Of a DNA stretch of 41,201 bases, positions 1,818 to 30,382 are shown piece by piece. The DNA is from an uncultured Bacilli bacterium (GTDB lineage: Bacteria; Bacillota_I; Bacilli_A; RFN20; CAG-631). The notes under the pieces are model-generated. The model was not told the DNA's origin and did not search any database. It saw nothing but the letters and a program-made list of their open reading frames with translations. How positions within the stretch are numbered: position 1 is the stretch's first letter; each line of letters opens with the position of its first letter. The DNA lies in assembly GCA_934202505.1 (NCBI GenBank), contig CAKPXW010000002.1, positions 1-41,201 of the forward strand. Reading direction: 5' to 3'. The position numbers were made by a program, and so were the translations under genes.

Positions 1818-1925
1818 TCTCCTTTCAAGATATAATACTATATTTCTTTTATAAAGAAAAGATTTATTTTTACTTTTACTATGCTTGTGTTTGTATTATA
1901 ATTATTTATGTGGAGGTATTTTTTT

Positions 1926-3683
1926 ATGAAAAATATAAAAAAGCAAATTACAGGTTTAATAGTAGCTACTTTATTATGTGGAAGTTGTGCTAATCCTTTA
2001 GAAAGTGATAGTAATAACATTATTAATAGTATTCTTGATAAAATAAGTGACTATTTAAGTGATAGTAATTATTCAAGCGATGAGATAAGTTCTATTGAAC
2101 AAGAAATTTCTAGTATCTTAGAATCTTCTCCTGAGCAAGAAAGTAGTAATAATTATTTAGATAGTTTATCTATTACTTCTATTGCTAATGCATTAAAGAT
2201 TGCTCAAAAATTAGATAATGGAGCAAGTACTAACACTAAATATTATTTAAAAGGAAAAGTAGTAGATTTATCAAACACTATTTATGGTAATTGCTATCTT
2301 CAAGATAATGATGGCAATAAAATTCAAATTTATGGTTCTTATTCTTTTGATGGCTCTAAAAGATATGATTCGATGTCTAATAAATTTAAAGATGGCGATG
2401 AAGTTATTTTCTATGGAATTTTAAAAAATTATTTCAATGAAAACACTTCTACTAATTATTATGAAATGGAAAATGCCTGGACTATTGGAATAAATGGAGT
2501 TTATCAAGGAAATAACACTGATGGGCCTAATGATTCAGATAGTTCTAATCCATCAGATAATGAAAACTTTGTTGATACATTAGACTTAACTTCTATTTCA
2601 GATATTATTTCTATTGCAAGTTCTCTTGCTAATGGAGAAACATCAAAGGAAAAATATTATGTTCTAGGTAATGTTACAGATTTATACAATACTACTTATG
2701 GTAATTGCTATCTTCAAGATAATGATGGTAATAAAATTCAAATTTATGGTTCTTATTCTTTTGATGGTTCAAAAAGATATGATTCGATGTCTAATAAGTT
2801 TGTCGAAGGTGATGAAGTTGTCTTCTATGGACCTGTTATGAATTATTATGACTCACAAAAGCAAGTGAACAAATATGAACTTGTTAATGCTTGGACTATT
2901 GCTATTAATGGCGTTGACCAATCAAAAGCAGCTCCAAATCCTATTGATCCTAACCCAATTACTCCAGATAATCCAATTTATCCATCTGAAGATGGTTGGA
3001 CAAATACAGATATGAAAGACTATTATTCAGGAATTTCTTTAAAAGAAACAGGAGATACTCTTCTTTCATCTTTAAGAACTTTAAATAATAAAATGCGTAA
3101 AAAAACTGTTGGATACAGTGGACTTTGGACTTATTATAGTCAAACAGATTATGATCCTAACAATAAAAATCAATACCTTGCTTTCTATCAAGGCGTTGGT
3201 GGAAGTAAAAGTGAAATGAATAAAGAACATGTTTGGCCAAAATCACGTGGTGGAAATTTAGTCGATGGTGATTTACATATGACTCGTCCAACTTTTACAA
3301 AAGATAATTCAAGTCGTGGCCATTCTTTCTATGTTGAAGGAAGAAACCATTCATCATCTGGTTGGGATCCTAAAGCTGCTGGAATGAAAGAACAATATCG
3401 TGGTCAAGCAGCTCGTATTATTTTCTATTGTGTTGTAGCAAGTAATCAATTAAGTCTTGTTGATAAAGATAATGATGCAACATCTAATAAAACAATGGGA
3501 AAATTATCTGATTTATTAAAATGGAATTTAGAATATGATGTTGTTCAAAGTGAACTAAATCGTAATAACGGTGCTCAAAATGTGCAAGGAAATAGAAATC
3601 CATTTATTGATAATCCTGGAATGGCTTGTGCCATTTGGGGTAATACAAATACCACTACAAAATCTATTTGTGCAGGTAAATAA
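1926..3683 (+). CDS. Secreted lipoprotein nuclease: two OB-like repeat modules plus a C-terminal endonuclease I family domain
   Basis: GGAGG lies 9 nt before the ATG at 1926. Signal peptide and lipobox (LLCGSC). C-terminal motifs EHVWPKSRGG, AARIIFY and QGNRNPFID match Endonuclease_1 (PF04231). Confidence 0.85.
   Translation: MKNIKKQITGLIVATLLCGSCANPLESDSNNIINSILDKISDYLSDSNYSSDEISSIEQEISSILESSPEQESSNNYLDSLSITSIANALKIAQKLDNGASTNTKYYLKGKVVDLSNTIYGNCYLQDNDGNKIQIYGSYSFDGSKRYDSMSNKFKDGDEVIFYGILKNYFNENTSTNYYEMENAWTIGINGVYQGNNTDGPNDSDSSNPSDNENFVDTLDLTSISDIISIASSLANGETSKEKYYVLGNVTDLYNTTYGNCYLQDNDGNKIQIYGSYSFDGSKRYDSMSNKFVEGDEVVFYGPVMNYYDSQKQVNKYELVNAWTIAINGVDQSKAAPNPIDPNPITPDNPIYPSEDGWTNTDMKDYYSGISLKETGDTLLSSLRTLNNKMRKKTVGYSGLWTYYSQTDYDPNNKNQYLAFYQGVGGSKSEMNKEHVWPKSRGGNLVDGDLHMTRPTFTKDNSSRGHSFYVEGRNHSSSGWDPKAAGMKEQYRGQAARIIFYCVVASNQLSLVDKDNDATSNKTMGKLSDLLKWNLEYDVVQSELNRNNGAQNVQGNRNPFIDNPGMACAIWGNTNTTTKSICAGK
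2148..2919 (+). repeat. Internal tandem duplication (period 414 bp, 138 aa) inside the nuclease gene
   Basis: GGTAATTGCTATCTTCAAGATAATGATGG... starts at 2286 and again at 2700. The ~130-bp cores are nearly identical and encode YGNCYLQDNDGNKIQIYGSYSFDGSKRYDSMSNKF in both copies; the flanks are more diverged. Confidence 0.9.
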
Positions 3684-7736: not shown

Positions 7737-8300
7737 ATGCAACTATATTGTTTAGAAGTTAATGACTATTCAGCAAATATTGATATGTCTATTTTTCCTT
7801 TAAATTTACAACAACATATCAAACAATATCAAGGAAAAGATAGAATTAATAGTTACTATGCTTATAAGATTTTATATGATAAAATCGATGATTTTAATAT
7901 AGAATTTTCTTTAAATGGTAAACCATTATTTAAAAACCATTTTGTATCGATAAGTCATAGTGAAAATATGGTGTTGGTAGCTATTTCTTTTAAAAATGTT
8001 GGAATTGATTTGCAATGTCATAAAAAAATAAGTAAATCATTAATTGATAAAATCGTTCCTAATAATCATATTAATGCAGTCTATAATGATAATAACTTAT
8101 TTTTTAACTATTGGTGCCTGATGGAAGCAAAATGTAAATATGATGATGGTAAATTAGTAAACTATTTTAAACAAGATATTACTGGTAAAACTTTAACTAT
8201 TACTGATAGAAGCAAAAATTGCTATACTATTGGTATAGTAAGTAATGATACAAATATTAACATTAAAAAAATGGAGATTAATAATGGAAATATCAATTAA
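7737..8300 (+). CDS. 4'-phosphopantetheinyl transferase family protein (divergent)
   Basis: SISHSENMVLVAISFKNVGIDLQ and WCLMEAKCK resemble the PPTase motifs (G-I-D-x-E and W-x-x-K-E-x-x-x-K). Starts 1 nt after the peptidase stop. Confidence 0.6.
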   Translation: MQLYCLEVNDYSANIDMSIFPLNLQQHIKQYQGKDRINSYYAYKILYDKIDDFNIEFSLNGKPLFKNHFVSISHSENMVLVAISFKNVGIDLQCHKKISKSLIDKIVPNNHINAVYNDNNLFFNYWCLMEAKCKYDDGKLVNYFKQDITGKTLTITDRSKNCYTIGIVSNDTNINIKKMEINNGNIN

Positions 8301-9242: not shown

Positions 9243-9659
9243 CTATTTATTTTTATATAATGTTATTTCTTCTTTATTTTCAAATAAATGTTTAAATCTA
9301 GTAACATCTATATAACAATTCTCTTTTACCATAAATGTCTTTAAAACATCAAATAATGTTTTATTACTTATATTAGCAAGGCATGCTAAATAATAGATAT
9401 TCTCACCGGCGTTAACTAATATCACTGTTTCATTGCAAATTGATATTATAAAGCCAAAATCTTTATTTTCCATTTCTAGACTATCAATAAGTATAGAATT
9501 TTCGAAATTATTAGCATTAATGACATACCTTTTTACTTTACTTTCAATAATTGGTTTTGTTTTATCAAGTTCTCCTTCAAATAAAAATGAATTATTTAAT
9601 GTTTCGTCGTATTTTACAAAATAAGGAGTCCTTATATATCTAAATTGTACATTTTCCAT
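9243..9659 (-). CDS. Hypothetical protein
   Basis: 138-aa ORF with GGAG-containing upstream sequence; no motif recognised. Confidence 0.5.
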   Translation of the reverse strand: MENVQFRYIRTPYFVKYDETLNNSFLFEGELDKTKPIIESKVKRYVINANNFENSILIDSLEMENKDFGFIISICNETVILVNAGENIYYLACLANISNKTLFDVLKTFMVKENCYIDVTRFKHLFENKEEITLYKNK

Positions 9660-9731
9660 AGTGTATTTCTCCTTTAAATTAATAGTAAATCATTGTATGT
9701 TATTTTTCAATAGCTAAAATTTCAAAAAAAC

Positions 9732-9760
9732 TTGAAATAATTCCATAAAAATGATAATAT
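9732..9760 (+). promoter_or_regulatory. Sigma-70 type promoter for tRNA-Trp
   Basis: TTGAAA (9732..9737), 17-nt spacer, TAATAT (9755..9760), 15 nt upstream of the tRNA 5' end. Confidence 0.6.
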
Positions 9761-9775
9761 ATCTCTTGCAAATAT

Positions 9776-9849
9776 AGGGGCATAGTTAAATGGCTTAACA
9801 ACGGTCTCCAAAACCGTCAATCTGGGTTCGATTCCTAGTGCCCCTGCCA
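9776..9849 (+). tRNA. trnW: tRNA-Trp (anticodon CCA), CCA-3' encoded
   Basis: Folded by hand: acceptor AGGGGCA/TGCCCCT, anticodon stem ACGGT/ACCGT with loop CTCCAAA, T-arm CTGGG-TTCGATT-CCTAG, discriminator G, then CCA. Confidence 0.9.
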
Positions 9850-9922
9850 TTAAGAATGCATTAGTTTGATACAGTAAAAATGTATTAAACTTTTTTTATT
9901 TTTACGGGAGTTTGATTCTTAC
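9848..9922 (+). repeat. Left copy of a ~75-bp imperfect direct repeat (candidate attL), abutting the tRNA 3' end
   Basis: CATTAAGAATGCATTAGTTTGATACAGTAAAA... recurs at 13608..13681. The first 33 nt have one mismatch; overall about five-sixths identity by hand alignment. Confidence 0.85.
9863..9898 (+). terminator. Rho-independent terminator of tRNA-Trp (inside the left repeat)
   Basis: AGTTTGATACA / TGTATTAAACT forms an 11-bp stem (one G-T pair) with a 7-nt loop, followed by TTTTTTT. Confidence 0.7.
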
Positions 9923-10000
9923 CGTATGTTCGAACATTCGAACTTTGATACATATAATTTTCATTTTAAATTGTGAATTTTTGAAATTCTATATGCTTAC

Positions 10001-10080
10001 TATTGAACGATTATTTTAACAAATGAACGATTACTGAAACTATTGAACGTTTACTCCAACAATTAAACGATATAAATAGA
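10001..10080 (+). repeat. Four iteron-like direct repeats with exact 20-bp phasing
   Basis: TTGAACGATTA (10003), ATGAACGATTA (10023), TTGAACGTTTA (10043), TTAAACGATAT (10063). Confidence 0.85.
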
Positions 10081-10126
10081 AAATTCTTTATAAGTAAAAA
10101 AAATATGTAATTTTGCAGTTTTATCA

Positions 10127-10154
10127 TTGATTTATTACCAATTTTCGATATAAT
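10127..10154 (+). promoter_or_regulatory. Putative promoter of the AlbA_2-like gene
   Basis: TTGATT (10127..10132), 16-nt spacer, TATAAT (10149..10154). Confidence 0.5.
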
Positions 10155-10182
10155 AAACTTGGTAATAAAAGTTGGTGATAAA

Positions 10183-11580
10183 ATGAAAATTAAAGAAATA
10201 ATTAATGAACTATTGCAATTTTCTAAAGAAAGAGAGTGGTTTGAGTTTAAAGAAAATTGGTTTCAACCTGTCGCTCTTGGAGAATATGTTTCTGCTCTTT
10301 CTAATGCGGCCGCTCTTTTAGGAAAGGACTATGGATATTTTGTATGGGGGATAAATGATGAAACTCATGAAATAGTGGGAACTGATTTTGATTATTACCA
10401 AGACTATAGACATGAGCCATATCAAAACTATCTAAATAGAAATCTCTCTCCACGAATCAAATTTGAGTTTGGTGAAGATGTTATTAATGGAAAAAGAGTT
10501 GTTATTTTAGCCATTGAAGCAGCAAAAGAAATCCCAACTTCATTTAATAAAGTTAGATATATTCGAATTGGGTCATCAAAAGATTCAATGGAAAATAATC
10601 CTAAAAAGGAAAAAGAACTTTTTAAAATACTTGAAAATGGTTATCCAACAATAGTTAATACTGAATCACTATATCAAGATTTAACATTTGAAAAATTGTT
10701 CATGTATTATGGAAGCAAAGGAATAAGTATCAAGCAAGAAACATTTAAAAAAAATCTTCATTTATTAACTCCTGATGGAAAATACAATATAATGGCGCAA
10801 CTTCTTTCTGATAACTCCCAACTACCATTAAGGTTATCAATATTTGAAGGAGAAACAAAAGGATCAAATCTTTATGCTATTAAAGAATTCGGATTTGATT
10901 GCCTTTTATATTCGCTAAAAAATCTTTTAGATTATGGAGATGTTATCAACATAATTCAATCTGATGAAACAAATAGAAAAGAAGAAAGAAAAGAAACGCC
11001 GTTGTTTGACATAAAATCATTCAATGAAGCTATAGTTAATGCGGTTCTTCACAATAAATGGGTTGATGGAAATGAGCCTATGATAACAGTATACTCTAAT
11101 AGAATTGAAATTCTTTCTAGAGGCACAATAGCTCCATCTCAAACATTAGAAGGTTTTTATTTAGGAGAATCAGTGCCTGTAAATGAAAAATTATCAGAAA
11201 TCTTTGCTCAATTAAGAATAAGTGATAAATCTGGAAGAGGAGTTCCAAAAATTGTTGAAAACTATTCTAGAAATGCTTTTGAATTTAGAGACAATTCAAT
11301 AGTAGTTACTATTCCATTTAATTATAATAGAAAAGTTGGTGATAAGGTTGGTAATAAAATTGGTAATAATCCTACAACTAGAAAGCATGGATTAAACTTA
11401 ACAAGGGAAAGAATCATGTCAGAAATGAGACATAATCCAAATATTACTAAAGTCGAACTTGTTATATTATTAGGTATAAGTAATACTGCAGTTGATAATA
11501 ACATAAGATATCTAAGAGAAAATGGCTACATAATTAGAGTTGGCGAAAATAAAAATGGTTACTGGAAAGTTTTAAAATAA
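10183..11580 (+). CDS. AlbA_2/Schlafen-like domain + HATPase_c_4-like + C-terminal winged-HTH protein (often annotated as RecG-like putative transcriptional regulator)
   Basis: EREWFEFKENW near the N-terminus is typical of AlbA_2. The central NAVLHNKW...GRGVPKI resembles the divergent ATPase-like module. The C-terminal ITKVELVILLGISNTAVDNNIRYLRENGYI is a wHTH. ATG at 10183 is preferred over the TTG at 10159. Confidence 0.7.
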   Translation: MKIKEIINELLQFSKEREWFEFKENWFQPVALGEYVSALSNAAALLGKDYGYFVWGINDETHEIVGTDFDYYQDYRHEPYQNYLNRNLSPRIKFEFGEDVINGKRVVILAIEAAKEIPTSFNKVRYIRIGSSKDSMENNPKKEKELFKILENGYPTIVNTESLYQDLTFEKLFMYYGSKGISIKQETFKKNLHLLTPDGKYNIMAQLLSDNSQLPLRLSIFEGETKGSNLYAIKEFGFDCLLYSLKNLLDYGDVINIIQSDETNRKEERKETPLFDIKSFNEAIVNAVLHNKWVDGNEPMITVYSNRIEILSRGTIAPSQTLEGFYLGESVPVNEKLSEIFAQLRISDKSGRGVPKIVENYSRNAFEFRDNSIVVTIPFNYNRKVGDKVGNKIGNNPTTRKHGLNLTRERIMSEMRHNPNITKVELVILLGISNTAVDNNIRYLRENGYIIRVGENKNGYWKVLK

Positions 11581-11660
11581 CAAAAATAATTATGAAATTG
11601 TTTGATTTTTTGATGTTGCTGAAAAATATGTAATTGTGTAAGAAAAGGAAATAAATAAAA

Positions 11661-12011
11661 ATGAAAAAGATAAATGCAGTAGATTATTTAGGAAAAGAAG
11701 TAACTTTAAAAATTGATAGACCATTAGGTTCAAGACATCCACAATATGGTTTTATCTATATGTTAAATTATGGATATGTACCTAATACTATTAGTGGAGA
11801 TGGTGAAGAATTAGATGCATACTTAATTGGAGAATTTGAACCAGTTACATCTAGTAGTGGCAAAGTTATTGCAATTATACATAGGACTAATGATGACGAT
11901 GATAAACTTATTGTTTCTAAAAATGGGAATGATTATTCGGATGATGCAATTAGAGCATTAACTGAATTTCAAGAAAGATTCTTTGATTCAATAATTATAA
12001 GAAATAAATAA
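11661..12011 (+). CDS. Small inorganic pyrophosphatase-like protein
   Basis: 116 aa. GDGEELDAYLIGE and IHRTNDDDDKLIV resemble the acidic metal-binding core of family I pyrophosphatase, but much shorter. Confidence 0.5.
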   Translation: MKKINAVDYLGKEVTLKIDRPLGSRHPQYGFIYMLNYGYVPNTISGDGEELDAYLIGEFEPVTSSSGKVIAIIHRTNDDDDKLIVSKNGNDYSDDAIRALTEFQERFFDSIIIRNK

Positions 12012-12037
12012 TTTATTAATAGAAGAAAGGTAATTTT

Positions 12038-12673
12038 ATGAGTTTTGATTTTAAAAAAGAATATAAAGAATTTTATATACCTAAAAACAAGCCAAGTATT
12101 GTTGAAATACCAAGAATGAATTATATAGCTGTTAGGGGAATAGGAAATCCAAATGAAGAAAATGGTGATTATCAAAACACTATTGGTTTATTATATGGAG
12201 TAGCATATACAATAAAAATGAGTTATAAGGGAACTCATAAAATAGAAGGCTTTTTTGATTATGTTGTACCACCACTTGAAGGCTTTTGGTGGCAGGATGG
12301 TTTAACTGGAAGCATTGATTATGATAATAAAGAAGCAATGCATTTTATATCAATTATTAGATTGCCTGATTTTGTGACTAAAGAAGATTTTGAATGGGCC
12401 ATTGAAGAAGCCACAAAGAAAAAGAAACAAGATTTTTCAAGAGTTGAATTTTTAACTTATGATGAAGGCTTATGTGTTCAATGTATGCATATAGGTTCCT
12501 ATAATGACGAACCTGCAACCGTTAATACAATGCATGAATATATGAAAGAAAATGGTTATGAACTAGATATAACTGATAAAAGATATCATCATGAAATCTA
12601 TTTAAGTGATCCAAGAAAATGTGATAATAATAAATTAAAAACTGTCATTAGACACCCAATAAAGAAAAATTAA
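12038..12673 (+). CDS. GyrI-like small-molecule-binding domain protein
   Basis: FDFKKEYKEFYIPKNKPSIVEIPRMNYIAVRGIGNPNEENGDY... and CVQCMHIGSYNDEP are characteristic of the GyrI-like (PF06445) family. Confidence 0.8.
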   Translation: MSFDFKKEYKEFYIPKNKPSIVEIPRMNYIAVRGIGNPNEENGDYQNTIGLLYGVAYTIKMSYKGTHKIEGFFDYVVPPLEGFWWQDGLTGSIDYDNKEAMHFISIIRLPDFVTKEDFEWAIEEATKKKKQDFSRVEFLTYDEGLCVQCMHIGSYNDEPATVNTMHEYMKENGYELDITDKRYHHEIYLSDPRKCDNNKLKTVIRHPIKKN

Positions 12674-12841
12674 TAGGGATAGTACCAATCACTTTTAAGA
12701 ATCTAATAGTTAAAAAGAGCTAATCATTTCATTCAGTCTTATTTTAAATATCATGATTTGCTGTTGTATCCATTATGTACCACTAAGCGTGGATATCAAT
12801 TGAAATTATTTGATGTTAATATAGTTTTAGGAGGTGCTACT

Positions 12842-13453
12842 ATGGATATAATTAAGATTGGAAATTTTATCCGTGAATGCAGGAAAAATAAAAATTTAAC
12901 ACAAAAGCAGTTAGCGGATAAATTATTTATTGAGCCTAAAACTATTTCAAAATGGGAAACGGGAAATGGTTTGCCAGATGTTTCGATAATGAAAAATTTA
13001 TGTAATGAATTAGATATATCTTTAAGTGAACTATTTATAGGGGAATATGGTAAAGATGAATCTTATGAATTAATAACAGAACAAATACTCTTAAAAGAAT
13101 TTGAAAAAGAACGAATACGAAATAAAAAAAATTTAATTGGTGAAATTTTAATAGGATGTGCTTTTATTGCTGTTGTAATCACATTAATATTATTTGTAGG
13201 ATTTGTACCTATTGCAACATATTTGAAAATAATACTAGTTGCATTAGCATTAATCTTTATTGTTGTAGGAATAACAGGATTAATATTATTAGATGCTAAT
13301 ATTGGATATTTTGAATGTGCAGAATGTCATGAAAGATTTGTACCTTCAGTTAAAGATTATACTTTTGGATTACATACATTTAAAAAAAGAAAGTTAACTT
13401 GTCCTAAATGTGGTAAAAAGACTTGGTGCTCTAAAAGAATTAATAAAATATAG
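12842..13453 (+). CDS. Membrane-tethered XRE-family HTH protein with a C-terminal zinc ribbon
   Basis: GGAGG RBS before the ATG at 12842. HTH_3 (LTQKQLADKLFIEPKTISKWETG), two predicted TM helices, then CAECHERF...CPKCGKK. Confidence 0.75.
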   Translation: MDIIKIGNFIRECRKNKNLTQKQLADKLFIEPKTISKWETGNGLPDVSIMKNLCNELDISLSELFIGEYGKDESYELITEQILLKEFEKERIRNKKNLIGEILIGCAFIAVVITLILFVGFVPIATYLKIILVALALIFIVVGITGLILLDANIGYFECAECHERFVPSVKDYTFGLHTFKKRKLTCPKCGKKTWCSKRINKI

Positions 13454-13528
13454 AAGTTAATAAATAAATGTCATTTTAAAAGCTTCCAACAAGAAATATT
13501 AAGTTGATTATAAAATAGGAATGTTATT

Positions 13529-13585
13529 GCGTTACGCAAAATAGAGGCAGGGTTACGCAAATTGATAGAAACGTTACGCATTTTG
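13529..13585 (+). repeat. Three direct repeats with exact 21-bp phasing
   Basis: GTTACGCAAA (13531), GTTACGCAAA (13552), GTTACGCATT (13573), ending about 25 nt before the right direct repeat. Confidence 0.85.
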
Positions 13586-13607
13586 TATCAAATGTTGTGT
13601 TTCTAGA

Positions 13608-13681
13608 CATTAATAATGCATTAGTTTGATACAGTAAAATGTGTCGAACTTTTTTTGCTTTTACGTGGGTTAATTCTTATC
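13608..13681 (+). repeat. Right copy of the ~75-bp imperfect direct repeat (candidate attR), also a terminator-like hairpin
   Basis: CATTAATAATGCATTAGTTTGATACAGTAAAATGTGTCGAACTTTTTTTG... The hairpin AGTTTGATACA / TGTGTCGAACT is kept through G-C and G-T pairs and is followed by a T-run. Confidence 0.85.
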
Positions 13682-13806
13682 ATTTGTTTTACCTTATGAG
13701 CAATAATGCTACACTTATAAAATGATTTATTTTGCCAAATATTTCGCCATTGTATTGATTTATTTCGTCAAAATTCATATAATTAATATAGTAAAAGGTG
13801 AAATAA

Positions 13807-14304
13807 ATGAATGTAAAAATTGTTTGCTCATTCCTTATTTTGTTAGTTGTTTCATTAACAGGATGTACCACGATTTCTAGCAGTGAAAACACTAGTATTG
13901 ATAGTGGAAGTATTAGTGTTGATAGTGGGAGTATTAGTTTTTCGGTAGAAGGTAGTTCTTCAGGCGAATCTGGGAAAACTGATGGTGAACTTATTTTTGT
14001 ATCCGAAGAAGAACAATTGAAAAACAGTGACTTGGTTTATCAAGTTGTAGTGACTAAAAGAGGAGGAGTTGAATTCATTGATAATCAACTCTATACGGTT
14101 TATTATTTCGAAATTTTAGAAATTATTAAAGGTGAAGAAACAATAAATTATGCTTATTTTAGAGGAGACACAACAGAAAACAGCAGTGTGACAAGTTCTA
14201 CTGATGAAAAATTGATAGAAAATGAAAATTATAAATTATATTTACAAAACAGAAACGGCAAGTATATAACAACAGCAGGATATCAAAGTATTATAAAACA
14301 ATAA
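13807..14304 (+). CDS. Hypothetical lipoprotein
   Basis: Signal peptide with lipobox LTGC and a Ser-rich linker (SIDSGSISVDSGSIS). RBS AAAGGTG. Confidence 0.65.
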   Translation: MNVKIVCSFLILLVVSLTGCTTISSSENTSIDSGSISVDSGSISFSVEGSSSGESGKTDGELIFVSEEEQLKNSDLVYQVVVTKRGGVEFIDNQLYTVYYFEILEIIKGEETINYAYFRGDTTENSSVTSSTDEKLIENENYKLYLQNRNGKYITTAGYQSIIKQ

Positions 14305-14341
14305 GGAACTTTTGGTAGATTAAACCTTATAAAATATTTAT

Positions 14342-14373
14342 GCTCACACTTCAAACGTGTGGGCTTTTTATTT
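14342..14373 (+). terminator. Rho-independent terminator after the lipoprotein gene
   Basis: GCTCACAC / GTGTGGGC 8-bp stem with a 7-nt loop, followed by TTTTTATTT. Confidence 0.65.
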
Positions 14374-14901
14374 CTACTTTTACACATGCCTGGTGGTTAT
14401 GCTGCCATCCAGGACCTTTTTGATTATTGATTCGACATAGCTACTGTTCAAATTGTTCATAAGATTTTCTTTCAGTGAGAACAATATGTACCATAAGCAA
14501 TTAGGTGAAAACAAATAACGGTATAATCACACAATAGATGTGACAAAGTTGACTTTTTGAGCAATTTATGGGAAACTTAGAGCAAGATAATTTGTTATAC
14601 AAATTATGAAGTTGCTAACTCCAAATAGCCTATAAAAAATGCAAAAACATAGGCAAAAGGAGTGGACAAGGCAGGAAAAATGTTGGACATTCATTAATAA
14701 TCAAACAAGATGTAAGTCTACCATTTGAGTGAATATAATAAAACTTTACCGCACTACTGCATAGAAAATAGCCTATGAGCGGTGCTATTTCGATTTTATA
14801 AGGAATAAAAACACAACATTAAAGCAGTTTAGGTTTTAGCTAAGAAAAAACCTATCTTTCAAATCTTACAAACGAAAAAAGTTAGAAAGAGGTGAAATAT
14901 A

Positions 14902-17900
14902 ATGAAAAAATATTTTAAAAAAACAAGTATTGCTATAATAATTGTTATGATGTTCATTTTCGCTATTTTTGGTGGCGAGACAATTACAATTCATACAAAC
15001 GCCGATAATACAAAATATAAAACAGTCGTGAACGCTCAAGGTGTCAAGACAGAAAAAGGGACAAAAGCGACAACGCAAGTAGAATTAGGAAATTATATCA
15101 GCCTTGGTAAGTACAACGGCAAGGATGTAATATGGAGGTGCGTCAGTATTGATGAGAAAGGGTTACTTATGCTTGCCGATAACATAATCGACACACTCCC
15201 TTACGACGCTAAGACCAACGACAACAACCGTTCTAAGTCACACAGCCGCAACAATAATCGTGATAACCGCGGCTCTAACTATTGGAAAGACAGCAATATG
15301 CGTTCTTGGCTCAATTCTACGGCAGTATCAGGCGAAGTGAAGTGGCTATGTGGTAATCCGCCAAGGGCCGGTTATGTAAATGAAAATGCGTATGACCAAA
15401 AAGCCGGTTTTTTGAACGACTTTTCCAAAGCCGAGATTGCCGCAATGAAGAACGTGACCCAGCGCTCTTTGGTATCACACCCTGAGTACAATCATGGATT
15501 TCATGATGGTGATGGTCGCTCTGATTTGGAATTTAATGAGAACATTGAGAACGTTGCCAGTAATTTCAACAGTGCATATGGCGAAAACTCGACCGAAAAG
15601 GTTTTTCTGCTAGACGTCCAACAAGTCAATAGAGTGTGGAAAAATTTCGATAATTATTATATAGGCAGAAAAGAAGGATTTGCTTGGCCTTATTGGCTAA
15701 GGACACCTCTTTCTAGTTGCAACCACCTAATGCGCTATGTGGGCAGCAATGGATTTGTTGGAAAAGATTACCCAACAAATGCTATTGGAGTAAGACCTGC
15801 GTTTTATCTAGATTCAGACTATTATGTAACAACCTCCGGCAATGGCAGTGCAAGCAATCCTTATGTTGGCTCTGCACCTGATAAAATCGAGGACGACTAT
15901 ACCATAGCCGAGTCGGAAGAAGACCCAAATCAAGAATGGGACGTAAGCCTTGACCAACAACTTAAACTTACCCTTGGTCCATACTATTCTAGCGATGGCA
16001 AATATGCCACACCGACTATTCCTATCTATACTATCCAAAAGACAAGAAGTGACACCGAAAATATGGTAATTCTTATTTGTGGCGAGGGTTACACCAAGAG
16101 TCAGCAACAAAAGTTTATCAATGATGCAAAAAAAGTATGGGAAGGAGCAATTCAGTACGAACCATATCGTAGTTATGCCGACCGCTTCAACGTATATGCA
16201 CTTTGTACGGCGTCAGAGTCGAGTTTTAACAATGGTGATAGTACATTTTTTGATGTTGTTATAGATAAAAAGGTTGGGCCGATGATTTCAGTAAATAAAA
16301 GTAGTTGGAAAAACCATATTTTCGAACGCTGTATAGGACCTGCATTCATTGAACAAATTCACGACGCTCATATTCCTAATAAAACTGATCCTGATACATT
16401 TATTTGGGACGATGATAAAATGTACCCGCCATTTTATTATGTGCACAACTATATTAATCAATTTGCTTTGCTAGTCAATACGTCTCAAGATTTTGGTGGT
16501 TCACATAGAAATTATAAACGTGGTATCCATTATTTTATAACCCCAGCCGATAACAATCGTGCGCAAAAGTCTTTTGCACATGAGCTTGGTCACGGGTTGC
16601 TAGAACTTGGCGATGAATATATGACTTCAGCCGCAGAATCAATTGACTATACTTCGCTAAATGTGGCATATAATCACAATCCGGAACAAGTAAAGTGGAA
16701 AAAATTACTAGGGTTTAGAAAAACTTTTACATGCAATACACATCCTTCTTATACTGCTTACAATTCCAGTTGGGAATGCCTTATGCGTGATACCAACTAT
16801 CAGTTCTGTGAAGTATGCAAGTTGCAAGGGTACAAGAGAATGTCGCAACTCATAGATGGCAAAAGCCTCTATGTCGCCGACCCAGAAGTTAAGAAATATA
16901 TAGACAGGTATACTAACCCATCGGACTTTGTGGAAACAAATTACAATGGATATATTAATTTTATAAATTATCGTGAGGGAGTTTTGCTTAGCGGCTGGAA
17001 CAAAAACAAATTCAACACGGGTATGGTAGGTGAGAAAATTCAACTTCGCACCATCGTGCAAAATCTTTCAGACACTACGGAACGCCAAGTTACTATGAAA
17101 TTGTGGATAAAGCATGCCGATGGAAGCGTTGCAACTACAACTAGCGGTCAAATGCTAGAAGCAACACAAACTTTTACTATTCCTGTATGGAGCGAAAAGA
17201 GTAAGTTTTGGCAAAAGGGAGCTTTGGAATATAATGGTAGTGATTTGAATTCTGGATTGGAGAATTGTGAGTTGATTTACCAAATTCCACTAGACGCAGT
17301 GCTAAATAACGGCGACACCGTTGCCTTTGAAGTAACTGACGAAAACGGAAATGTGCTTGCTCACGACAATACCGAAACCCAACCATATGCAAACATTAAT
17401 ATTGAATATAAATTTGAGGACGGAAGTCCAATGCCTAATGCAACTAAAGCCGTAATACCTCTTGCAGTGGGAAGCTATGTTAATTGGACGACTGCTCCAT
17501 CACTTTATGGACATGTACTTAGCAAAGTTGATGGCCTAAATCAAATTGTAAGCGGGAGCGGCCAAACGGTGACGTACTATTATGCCAAAAAAATAGACAC
17601 CCATATTCACGATTGGAGTGATTGGGTAAGCAATGGTAACGGAACGCATACCCGCACTTGTACGAAAGATAGTAGTCATACCGAAACAGCAAATTGTTCG
17701 GGCGGAATGGCCACTTGCACAACAAAAGCGGTTTGTGACGTTTGCAAAACAATGTATGGCGAAACTGCATCTCATAACACAACGCAATATGGCGGAAAAG
17801 ACGGCACGGGACACTGGAATACTTGTTCGACTTGCGATAACAAATTCAACTTTGAAGCACATACTCCTGACAGAGAAAAAGCTGATGAAACCACCCCTGT

Positions 17901-29164: not shown

Positions 29165-30382
29165 TTATCCTCTATTGAAGAATAATTCTTCTATCTTATG
29201 TTCATCAATTTTTGAACCAATTACTACAATTCTTCCTGTATAGTCAGGTTCTCCTAAACGAATTTCGTAGTCTCCAACAACATAATCAAAGTAATACCAT
29301 TTTTCATTGTCACTTGCTTTTAAAATTCCTTTTGAACGTAAAATTATTCCAAGAGATTCATCAGTTGCTAATGTATTTAAGAATTTTTCAAGTTGTTCTT
29401 TACTTATAGAAACAGATGTTTCTTTACCCCAACTTGTAAATACTTCATCGGCATCATGACCATGGTGATGATGATGTTCATGACCTTCTTCATGATGATG
29501 ATGGCAGCAACATTCATCGTCATGATCATCTTCATGTTCTTCTTCATGATGATGGTGACAACAACATCCATCGTCATGATCATCTTCATGTTCTTCTTCA
29601 TGATGGTGATGACAACAACATCCATCGTCATGATCATCTTCATGTTCTTCTTCATGATGATGATGACAACAACATTCATCATCGTGATCATCTTCATGTT
29701 CTTCTTCATGATGATGATGACAACAACATTCATCATCGTGATTATGTTTATGTTCTTCTATCATTTGTTGAAGCATTTCATCTTTTAAAGATACTTTTTC
29801 TTCTAAAACAGCTAATAATTTATTTCCATCTAATTGAGAAATTGGTGTTGTTATTATATTAGCGTGATCATTCTTTTCTTTTATTAAATCAACAACTTCT
29901 TGGATTTTTTCTTCAGTTGTTTTATCAGATTTTGATACTACAATAGTATTTGCGGCTTCTATTTGATTATTAAAGAATTCGCCAAAATTTTTCATATACA
30001 TTTTTGCTTTTGGCCCATCAACAACTGTAGCAATAATATTTAATTTTAAATCAGCATCTACTTTTAAAACAGCATTAACAATATCTGATAATTTTCCAAC
30101 TCCTGATGGTTCAATAATTATTCTTTCAGGATTAAATTTATTAATAACTTCTTTCATAGAAGATTCAAAATCTCCTACCAAAGAGCAACAAATACAACCA
30201 GAATTTATTTCTTTAATATTAACTCCTGATTCCTTTAAAAAGGTTCCATCTATTCCTATTTCTCCAAATTCATTTTCAATCAAAACAACTTTTTCTTTTT
30301 TAAAAGAACTTTCAAATAGTTTTTTAATAAGTGTTGTTTTCCCAGCTCCTAAAAAGCCTGAAATAACATCTACTTTTATCAT
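29165..30382 (-). CDS. COG0523 (CobW/ZigA/ZagA-type) G3E metallochaperone GTPase with an expanded Cys/His repeat linker
   Basis: GFLGAGKTT Walker A, GCICCS metal motif, EPSGVG, CobW_C-like C-terminus, and five HDDECCCHHHHEEEHEDD repeats in between. Confidence 0.85.
   Translation of the reverse strand: MIKVDVISGFLGAGKTTLIKKLFESSFKKEKVVLIENEFGEIGIDGTFLKESGVNIKEINSGCICCSLVGDFESSMKEVINKFNPERIIIEPSGVGKLSDIVNAVLKVDADLKLNIIATVVDGPKAKMYMKNFGEFFNNQIEAANTIVVSKSDKTTEEKIQEVVDLIKEKNDHANIITTPISQLDGNKLLAVLEEKVSLKDEMLQQMIEEHKHNHDDECCCHHHHEEEHEDDHDDECCCHHHHEEEHEDDHDDGCCCHHHHEEEHEDDHDDGCCCHHHHEEEHEDDHDDECCCHHHHEEGHEHHHHHGHDADEVFTSWGKETSVSISKEQLEKFLNTLATDESLGIILRSKGILKASDNEKWYYFDYVVGDYEIRLGEPDYTGRIVVIGSKIDEHKIEELFFNRG
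29479..29757 (-). repeat. About five tandem copies of a 54-bp coding repeat
   Basis: Plus-strand unit CATCGTCATGATCATCTTCATGTTCTTCTTCATGATGATGGTGACAACAACATC repeats head-to-tail from about 29515, with only a few substitutions per copy. Confidence 0.9.

Follow-up and report, generated by a model that had tools for sequence, protein, structure and literature searches.

In a 41,201-nucleotide stretch of DNA from an uncultured Bacilli bacterium (contig CAKPXW010000002.1 of assembly GCA_934202505.1; hereafter the window), the segment at positions 9848–13609, which abuts a tRNA-Trp gene, very probably belongs to a family of mobile gene cassettes. Each unit has the form left end (LE), cargo genes, right end (RE), and its junction with the chromosome falls precisely on the CA of a tRNA CCA end. 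Units stack head to tail in one orientation, so that an RE is followed by the next LE or by a truncated LE. As to mechanism, we favor, at a probability of roughly 0.4–0.55, a reading in which the segment is a non-autonomous site-specific integrative cassette on which a serine recombinase would act in trans at the CA dinucleotide. What is new about these cassettes is that they join exactly at CCA, occur at many tRNA species, share an entry module of 100–280 nt that includes a tRNA terminator, and probably involve a serine recombinase. Literature searches turned up no description of an LE/RE cassette family, and the family appears to be undescribed.

The original prediction, made from the letters of the window, had pointed to an integrase-less cassette behind tRNA-Trp, bounded by imperfect direct repeats of about 75 nt, and much of that description is borne out. 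ARAGORN and Rfam both place the end of the tRNA gene at 9849, as proposed; this 3′ end is the attachment point, and its last bases, CA (9848–9849), form the junction with the element. The 32-nt core CATTAAGAATGCATTAGTTTGATACAGTAAAA at 9848–9879 has a second copy at 13608–13639 with one mismatch; there is no third copy in the window, and two matches never arose in 100 dinucleotide shuffles. Over an alignment of about 75 nt (9848–9921 and 13608–13681), the copies are ~84% identical, with ~10 mismatches and two single-base gaps, in agreement with the five-sixths estimated earlier. The right copy is the weaker one, and a profile search traces its similarity to 13709. The phased short repeats described just inside both ends are also present: four TTGAACGATTA-like units on the left, starting at 10003, 10023, 10043 and 10063 (20-nt period), and three GTTACGCA units on the right, at 13531–38, 13552–59 and 13573–80 (21-nt period). 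Between the repeats lie four plus-strand accessory genes, among which Pfam, NCBIfam and PADLOC scans found no recombinase or transfer genes.

The repeat itself has to be read differently. It had been taken for a pair of attachment sites, attL and attR, left by integration at this position, and is actually the first part of the family's own LE module. It includes no tRNA sequence: the similarity begins at the CA of the CCA end, with nothing upstream. Because the module follows 11 tRNA species as well as the right ends of other cassettes, the right-hand copy is either a scar or the truncated start of a further unit in a head-to-tail array, and the window shows a “direct repeat” because its RE is followed by such a truncated LE.

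LE loci were collected by exact search with the 20-mer GCATTAGTTTGATACAGTAA in species-representative genomes, where it matches at 23 loci, and in metagenome contigs, where it matches at 80 or more (about 12 of the latter have record names that state human gut; the others carry accession numbers only). The 20-mer starts exactly 8 nt 3′ of a tRNA CCA in 56 of 112 counted copies. Eleven tRNA species are represented: Trp (35 copies), His (6), Leu-GAG (4), Pro (3) and Ser-GCT (2), with one copy each for Arg-ACG, Arg-TCG, Ala, Gly, Thr and Cys. An RE precedes most of the others, and all LE copies within a locus are in direct orientation. The AT-rich module is nearly unchanged in contigs of 26–54% G+C. 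The hosts are low-G+C Bacilli of the human gut, known mostly from metagenomes, with relatives that include CAG:288, CAG:449 and UBA bins. The 20-mer had no match in IMG/VR viral contigs, and the full LE had no blastn match in GenBank phages or PLSDB plasmids. Four LE contigs (L002, L005, L012 and L020) are binned as Azospirillum sp. CAG:239, Prevotella and Gemmiger formicilis. In both G+C content (28–39%) and gene content they resemble the Bacilli loci, and the odd binning reflects either mis-binning or transfer across phyla.

This distribution bears on the most conservative explanation, that an ordinary terminator or repetitive extragenic palindromic (REP)-like repeat lies beside ordinary chromosomal genes and that its copies are coincidental or result from local duplication. 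The original prediction had named a generic terminator, scattered after many unrelated genes, as an outcome that would undo it. The terminator half of that proposal stands, since the repeat contains a hairpin and a T-run (confined to nt 15–55), and the G+C content of the cassette, ~27–28%, is the same as that of its flanks. The scattering does not: the repeat is found only at tRNA ends and cassette right ends, at fixed spacing and in direct orientation. A cassette at another tRNA in another genome and the different cargo of a sister strain, described below, already contradict this explanation, which we regard as extremely improbable.

Across copies within its range of lengths, the LE is ~80–90% conserved in sequence. 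It opens with CA, an 8-nt spacer, GCATTAG, and a hairpin (GTTTGATACA paired with TGTATYRAAC) followed by a T-run. A T-arm-like stretch, GGGTTCAATTCCTACC, comes next, then GTTCGAAC..CGAAC and a second TTTGATACA box. The last part consists of a second hairpin and T-run, present in one subfamily only, and four or five TTGAACGATTAC iterons at 20-nt spacing. When the loop, 3′ arm and tail of the first hairpin are compared across 40 distinct variants, nearly all variation in the 3′ arm consists of transitions that preserve plus-strand pairing as G-U or A-U, with 87–100% pairing per position. Because pairing is thus preserved, and because the hairpin of the right LE copy was called terminator-like, the LE appears to open with a terminator for the upstream tRNA. 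A permissive Rfam scan of 9600–13900 matched the tRNA only, so that the LE corresponds to no described RNA family. The iterons are kept in most full-length LE copies elsewhere, and one diverged LE carries the variant iteron TAGAACGATTAC. In the short right-hand copy of the window, likeness to the LE fades after ~100 nt and the iteron part is missing. Truncation points across loci are scattered from +50 to +190, for which reason a candidate second crossover where the 75-nt segment ends on the right (by the T-arm-like stretch, with its pseudo-“CGA” end) was dropped.

The RE generally comprises two to four iterons at ~21–26-nt spacing, a TTGTATYAA box, ~15 nt and a terminal CA. In the window, three GTTACGCA iterons are followed by an inverted TGTATCAA box at 13584–13591 (−24 to −17), 15 nt, and CA at 13608–13609. 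Other loci carry the iteron variants GGGTATGCA, GTACGCA/TATACGCA, GGGTGCTAAA or GGTATTAGGTTCGTTC. The iterons of the two ends differ in sequence, and those of the LE are constant whereas those of the RE vary between subfamilies, a pattern that suggests two different binding partners. An RE lies immediately upstream of most of the 52 LE copies that are away from a tRNA. It ends at CA before another LE (in the window, L008, L018 and many other loci) and also before unrelated native DNA (L010, L006, L013/14 and L033). The cleanest illustration is L010, a single 2.4-kb unit in which tRNA-Trp with its CCA is followed by LE, a Sel1-repeat gene, RE with its own CCA, and native DNA. At clean junctions, CA or CCA is the sole sequence common to both ends.

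The window, L008, L018 and other loci show exact symmetry in the arrangement TGTATCAA-N15-CA-N15-TTTGATACA. Around the non-palindromic CA, TGTATCAA occupies −24 to −17 and TTGATACA occupies +17 to +24, a span of about 50 bp (13584–13633 in the window); in the left LE copy the TTGATACA box at 9866–9873 likewise lies at +17 to +24 from CA. At the tRNA junction, positions −24 to −17 are the T-arm sequence GGGTTCGA (9824–9831), which has the pattern xGxxTCxA in common with TGTATCAA. The native flank of L010 has TTGATGCA at +17 to +24, with seven of eight matches, and that of L006 matches at six of eight. We infer that a pseudo-symmetric site of ~50 bp with crossover at CA would fit the site of a serine integrase.

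Mobility of the cassettes is indicated by comparisons between loci. Window positions 9847–13028 match positions 1529–4661 of L012 with 91.9% identity over 3.2 kb, beside tRNA-Arg(TCG) and in another gene context; the match takes in the LE and the first three cargo genes, up to the contig end, and the homology starts exactly at CCA. In a sister strain (91% identity in the flank protein), the same tRNA-Trp is followed by an LE of the other subfamily and by different cargo (MarR, SDR, flavodoxin/Fer4 and DUF8412 genes), then by an RE and a degenerate LE. In one species with TypA-MreB-YqeY-tRNA-Trp flanks at least 98.7% identical, at least five different cargos stand behind the same LE, among them EcoRI-type and other restriction-modification systems and surface proteins. 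Two-component system cargo occurs behind tRNA-Leu (L021, L027) and behind the second LE of the L008 tRNA-Trp array, and M64-like surface proteins occur behind tRNA-Ala (L005) and in tRNA-Trp arrays (window, L018). The earlier proposal of an integrative cassette that lacks an integrase and is, or once was, mobilized in trans gains support from the L012 copy, the cargo of the sister strain and more than 100 loci of like build.

Two further observations concern these arrays. In one contig (L013 and L014; DJQS01000017.1, 40001–56000), 11.9 kb lies between two LE copies at tRNA-Trp and encodes two Dam-type methyltransferases, an AlwI-type endonuclease, a Cap4-nuclease-like protein, an SMC-like ATPase and an 879-aa protein with a sigma-70 region-4 helix-turn-helix (HTH), together with an IS30-like insertion; the stretch looks like a defense island built in an LE array. 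Among contigs of the window's species, five of the eight fetched (L106, L107, L109, L110 and L112) end ~200 nt from the flank gene, near the tRNA/LE junction, as expected for repeated or polymorphic sequence, and the LE appears to be a recurrent assembly breakpoint.

Candidates for the recombinase come from the LE loci themselves. Large serine recombinases (LSRs) are encoded in nine of them, next to REs, on the same strand as the LE and upstream of tRNA-less LE copies. L026 and L072 each have a pair of 441 and 529 aa; L062 encodes a 544-aa protein with Resolvase, Recombinase, Zn_ribbon and DUF4368 domains, the last of which we take to be common in clostridial TnpX/TndX-type recombinases; and the reading frame of a 510-aa LSR in L036 runs into the CA/LE junction. 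Five loci retain C-terminal fragments only. The RE of L055 begins ~90 nt 3′ of the stop codon of such a gene fragment, and L091 is a decayed but complete unit that runs from tRNA-His-CCA through a diverged LE of like build, with TAGAACGATTAC iterons, and an LSR fragment to the junction with the next LE. Units that combine an LSR with LE/RE ends of the window's type are those of L026, L055 and L062, to which L091 can be added with its diverged LE. The small cassette of L018 (CAG:288) resembles a two-deletion derivative of the LSR-bearing element of L026. None of the LSRs can be identified as a Ccr protein, the best NCBIfam scores being 110–127 bits against cut-offs of 700–900.

The LSR of L062 has a 98%-identical relative in an IMG/VR contig, and homology with that contig stops at a perfect inverted repeat, GTTTGATAC-TT-GTATCAAAC. 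This sequence lies at 2420–2450 in L062 and at 7920–7945 in L116, ~85 nt downstream of the 544-aa LSR gene, and its 9-mer is that of the LE box. It is likely to be the attachment-site core of the L062-type recombinase. As a general feature of the L062 LSR clade the TTGATAC palindrome was rejected: only the 98% relative has it, and relatives of 60% identity or less differ.

In the reading that we favor, insertion and excision would proceed by conservative site-specific recombination at the CA dinucleotide, catalyzed in trans by an LSR from an autonomous relative. The enzyme would read a pseudo-symmetric site of ~50 bp, with boxes at −24 to −17 and +17 to +24 around CA. Where the partner is a tRNA, one half-site would be replaced by the universal T-loop, GGGTTCGA at −24 to −17, and many tRNAs could be used because the universal T-loop-to-CCA geometry would serve in that role. 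A resident tRNA/LE junction would be the preferred target; head-to-tail arrays would form because such an existing junction is the best available site. Homologous recombination between LE copies probably adds shuffling of cargo.

A number of observations weigh against this mechanism. Recombinase and transposase families had no matches in the 30 larger window open reading frames (ORFs) scanned, of 39 with at least 100 aa. LSRs are found in only ~9% of loci and are spread over three or more distant lineages. Relatives of the L026 pair, 88–89% identical, lie at the ends of siphophage-like or tailed prophages that have no LE, so that LSR-bearing DNA could be mere cargo; the assignment of this pair to an LE-bounded element was set aside on the same grounds, its link being weaker than those of L055 and L062. 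Serine integrases use simple sites of ~40–50 bp, and arrays of arm-type sites are typical of tyrosine integrases; since known serine integrases manage with simple sites, the conserved iterons of LE and RE have no role in a serine model. A box-like motif is found at only two of the four RE/native junctions, those of L033 and L013/14 having no match. No exact empty site of the LE family was present in the loci fetched, and no excised circle was seen; for the species of L010 none was found, the closest flank-protein cluster having yielded only a 2-kb contig. L092, a candidate empty site, proved on comparison with L018 to be an imprecise 2.5-kb deletion that ends inside the LE. Finally, strain-to-strain homology often breaks inside the LE (+160 to +190), not at CA. 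Because of these breaks and the scattered truncation points, homologous recombination and decay clearly contribute.

It is conceivable that homologous recombination accounts for everything. There would then be no current recombinase; the LE would be a terminator-plus-promoter module, like the promoter early stem-loop (PeSL) cassettes of T4-type phages, through which cargo is exchanged after DNA uptake, and the window cassette would be a fixed remnant. The terminator and promoter-like sites in the LE suit this explanation, as do the homology breaks inside the LE, the scattered truncations, the imprecise deletion in L092 and the many units that have no recombinase of any kind. It fails, however, to explain why the LE begins at the same nucleotide behind 11 tRNAs, why the conserved RE build ends in CA before native DNA or an LE, and why the boxes are exactly symmetric around CA and the orientation uniform. 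We consider it quite unlikely as a complete account.

Another explanation follows the original prediction more closely and compares the segment with cis-mobilizable elements (CIMEs). It would be the remnant of a tyrosine-integrase element, with iterons as arm-type sites, a core near CCA or in the 75-nt segment, and a lambda-type integrase and excisionase elsewhere in the genome. The position at a tRNA 3′ end, the phased repeats in both arms and the tandem arrays, as in the accretion of CIMEs and integrative and conjugative elements (ICEs), are all in keeping with this idea, and the 75-nt segment does occur as a separate piece, either as an RE plus short LE (window, L008) or as a tRNA plus short LE (L002, L017, L092). 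Nevertheless, phmmer searches with XerD and lambda Int as queries, at E values up to 10, detected no tyrosine recombinase in a set of 621 ORFs (100 aa or longer) from about 100 LE loci, a negative that reaches only relatives recognizable by HMMER. The shared CA or CCA is too short for the usual overlap region of 6–8 bp; the iterons of LE and RE differ, with the RE varying by subfamily and the LE constant; and one and the same LE adjoins 11 tRNAs whose 3′ ends are unrelated, so that the repeat holds no tRNA sequence. Of the comparison with CIMEs, the recombinase-less, trans-mobilized cassette holds up; the tyrosine integrase that it implied was not detected near the LE copies, and LSRs were found there instead. 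An origin from a tyrosine-integrase element is unlikely, but it deserves to be kept in view.

One reason for keeping it in view is a different, unrelated recombinase-less element at tRNA-Trp with a 7-nt flanking repeat. In another species of gut Bacilli, a 4.37-kb element without a recognizable recombinase is absent from L179 and present in L183 (9200–13600), exactly at the tRNA-Trp 3′ end. The empty site reads ..CCCCTGCCAAA followed directly by TTGG; in the occupied site the 4.37 kb stands between 7-nt repeats, TGCCAAA. The element has its own terminator hairpin and two iteron sets, and its sequence is unrelated to the LE/RE family; some strains of the species have extra units and IS1595 copies. 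The comparison shows that recombinase-less elements of this type are common at tRNA-Trp in these bacteria. The 7-nt repeat suits a tyrosine-recombinase overlap and so keeps a tyrosine-type mechanism in play, which also counts against the serine-recombinase reading.

A DDE or HUH transposon mobilized in trans, either Tn7-like with a tRNA attachment site or of the IS200/IS605 type, is very improbable. Insertion beside tRNAs in one orientation and repeated binding-like sites in both ends are traits of Tn7-like elements, just as a hairpin 15 nt from the left junction recalls IS200/IS605 ends. But there are no TGT...ACA terminal inverted repeats and no fixed-length target duplication beyond CA/CCA. 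A Pfam scan of 139 representative neighboring proteins gave no TnsB-type or HUH transposase among the 25 listed of 146 matched families, and the only insertion sequences seen are unrelated (an IS30-like ORF recognized by eye, IS66, and IS21 with IstB). Tn7-like, IS200/IS605, IS607, Xer/dif (the integrative mobile elements exploiting Xer, IMEX), integron and retro-element readings were all set aside, as neither matching enzymes nor fitting end structures were seen.

Among known systems, the family is closest in behavior to composites of the staphylococcal cassette chromosome (SCC) and its pseudo-SCC (ψSCC) forms and to CIMEs, and closest in genomic role to the tycheposons of Prochlorococcus, and is a member of none of these. 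SCC and ψSCC elements insert at a fixed point of rlmH (orfX) in one orientation and form head-to-tail composites with short repeats; many lack ccr genes, and their LSRs act in trans. Fixed-point insertion, single orientation, head-to-tail order and the scarcity of recombinases are shared with the cassettes described here, and the two LSR genes of L026 are adjacent. Here, by contrast, insertion is at the CCA end of many tRNAs and not at the rlmH 3′ end, none of the LSRs is a Ccr protein, and the ends carry long modules with iterons and a terminator. We infer that the LSRs act on the LE and RE ends. The CIMEs of streptococci, of the ICESt1/ICESt3 type, depend on a tyrosine integrase, use one site (the 3′ end of fda) and have a longer identical core. 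Attachment-type ends without integrase or transfer genes, tandem accretion and presumed mobilization in trans are common to both; here, in contrast, only CA or CCA is shared, 11 tRNA sites are used, and no tyrosine recombinase was detected nearby. Elements of the TnpX/TndX group (Tn4451, Tn5397) have a two-base GA crossover and an end joint that resembles the target, carry their own recombinase and are not tRNA-specific. The proposed two-base crossover and the resemblance of the joined ends to the target are points of likeness, but the crossover bases would be CA here rather than GA, and the units are mostly without a recombinase.

Like integrons, the family forms arrays of small, mostly promoter-poor cargo units with a structured module, at one platform and with the recombinase outside the cassette; unlike them, it has the module 5′ of each unit and a tRNA end as platform, and neither an IntI-like protein nor an attI or attC structure was seen. 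Tycheposons have partial copies of the tRNA at their borders; a tyrosine recombinase is present in 910 of 937, and an LSR in a minority (bioRxiv 10.1101/2020.12.28.424599). They resemble the present cassettes in carrying cargo at several tRNAs, in successive integrations that push older elements inward, and in degenerate remnants from which variable islands arise in small genomes (bioRxiv 10.1101/2020.12.28.424599). The repeat described here differs in starting at CCA and containing no tRNA sequence, and most of the units are recombinase-less, while all have one left-end module in common.

The features of the window cassette and of the genes that follow it are collected in Table 1. A promoter scan places a promoter-like site at 10127–10154, upstream of cargo gene 1. 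Homologues of cargo gene 2 in L001, L056, L073 and L104 have an LE copy directly downstream, and cargo gene 4 has an RstR-like NCBIfam match below cut-off. The cargo could not be assigned to a known defense system, PADLOC giving weak or domain-level matches only (cargo gene 1 against PDC-S50, 5e-7).

Table 1. Features of the tRNA-Trp cassette and the adjoining array (window coordinates)
Feature	Position	Strand	Basis or remark
tRNA-Trp (anticodon CCA), encoded CCA end	9776..9849	+	ARAGORN; Rfam tRNA, 61.4 bits
LE module of the cassette	9848..10075	+	Conserved in >100 copies from other genomes and metagenomes, each starting at CA
Hairpin GTTTGATACA / TGTATTAAAC (loop 9874–9880) and T-run	9864..9903	+	Resembles an intrinsic terminator of the tRNA transcript
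T-arm-like stretch GGGAGTTTGATTCTTACC (GGGTTCAATTCCTACC in most copies), then GTTCGAAC..CGAAC and second TTTGATACA box (9944–9952)	9905..9952	+	LE alignment
Four LE iterons of the form (T/A)TGAACGATTA, 20-nt phase	10003..10073	+	Repeat finding; the left phased repeats of the original prediction
Cargo gene 1, SLFN_AlbA_2 + HATPase_c_4 + winged-HTH, 465 aa	10183..11580	+	Pfam
Cargo gene 2, short inorganic-pyrophosphatase-like, 116 aa	11661..12011	+	Pfam PF00719, 2e-9
Cargo gene 3, GyrI-like small-molecule-binding protein, 211 aa	12038..12673	+	Pfam PF06445, 1.6e-21
Cargo gene 4, XRE-type HTH, 204 aa, hydrophobic membrane-like middle, CxxC pairs	12839..13453	+	Pfam HTH_3
RE of the cassette	13530..13609	+	Sequence; like architecture in L006, L008, L010, L013/14, L018 and many metagenome loci
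Second, short LE copy (right-hand repeat), terminator-like hairpin 13623–13650 and T-run	13608..13709	+	Profile search, alignment
Lipoprotein gene, probable further array member	13807..14304	+	
M64-peptidase-like / DUF6273 / Flg_new_2 surface protein, 1348 aa	14902..18948	+	Pfam

Positions 13807–18948 are probable further members of the array. The M64-like gene at 14902–18948 has a G+C content of 39–44%, against ~27% for the genome. Near-identical C-terminal segments of its product are encoded in L005 behind tRNA-Ala, and M64-like genes come next after an LE in L005 (tRNA-Ala), L018, L032, L060, L062 and L103. Because of the near-identical segments in L005 and the homologues behind LE copies in several loci, the gene is probably foreign cargo of the window's array. 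No RE was found downstream of it in the window. The gene also contains internal Cys-rich repeats, at 17683–17744 and 18037–18098. Two other repeats of the window lie within genes: six tandem 54-nt units at 29406–29813, a coding repeat expansion inside a minus-strand CobW/COG0523-type GTPase gene (29165–30382), and a 218-nt segment present twice at 2216–2847, 414 nt apart and 82% identical, an internal domain duplication inside an Endonuclease_1 / OB-fold gene (1908–3683).

The hosts of these cassettes are abundant in the human gut, and it is not well understood how such small genomes come by their restriction-modification systems, surface proteins and regulators. The 20-nt signature at tRNA ends offers a handle for cataloguing their variable genes and for strain tracking, and the cassette system may explain assembly breaks at tRNA-Trp. 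The conserved iterons suggest that a DNA-binding partner exists. A serine integrase that accepts many tRNA ends would, if it exists, be an unusual solution to target recognition, and might be turned into a tool that places DNA behind tRNA genes in organisms refractory to standard transformation. We suggest, tentatively, that an LSR exploiting universal tRNA geometry builds integron-like cassette arrays that would be a main gene-exchange platform of genome-reduced uncultured gut Bacilli, with restriction-modification systems, surface proteins and regulators as cargo. In such a platform, whose existence is still doubtful, each cassette would bring its own tRNA terminator and an iteron-controlled entry module.

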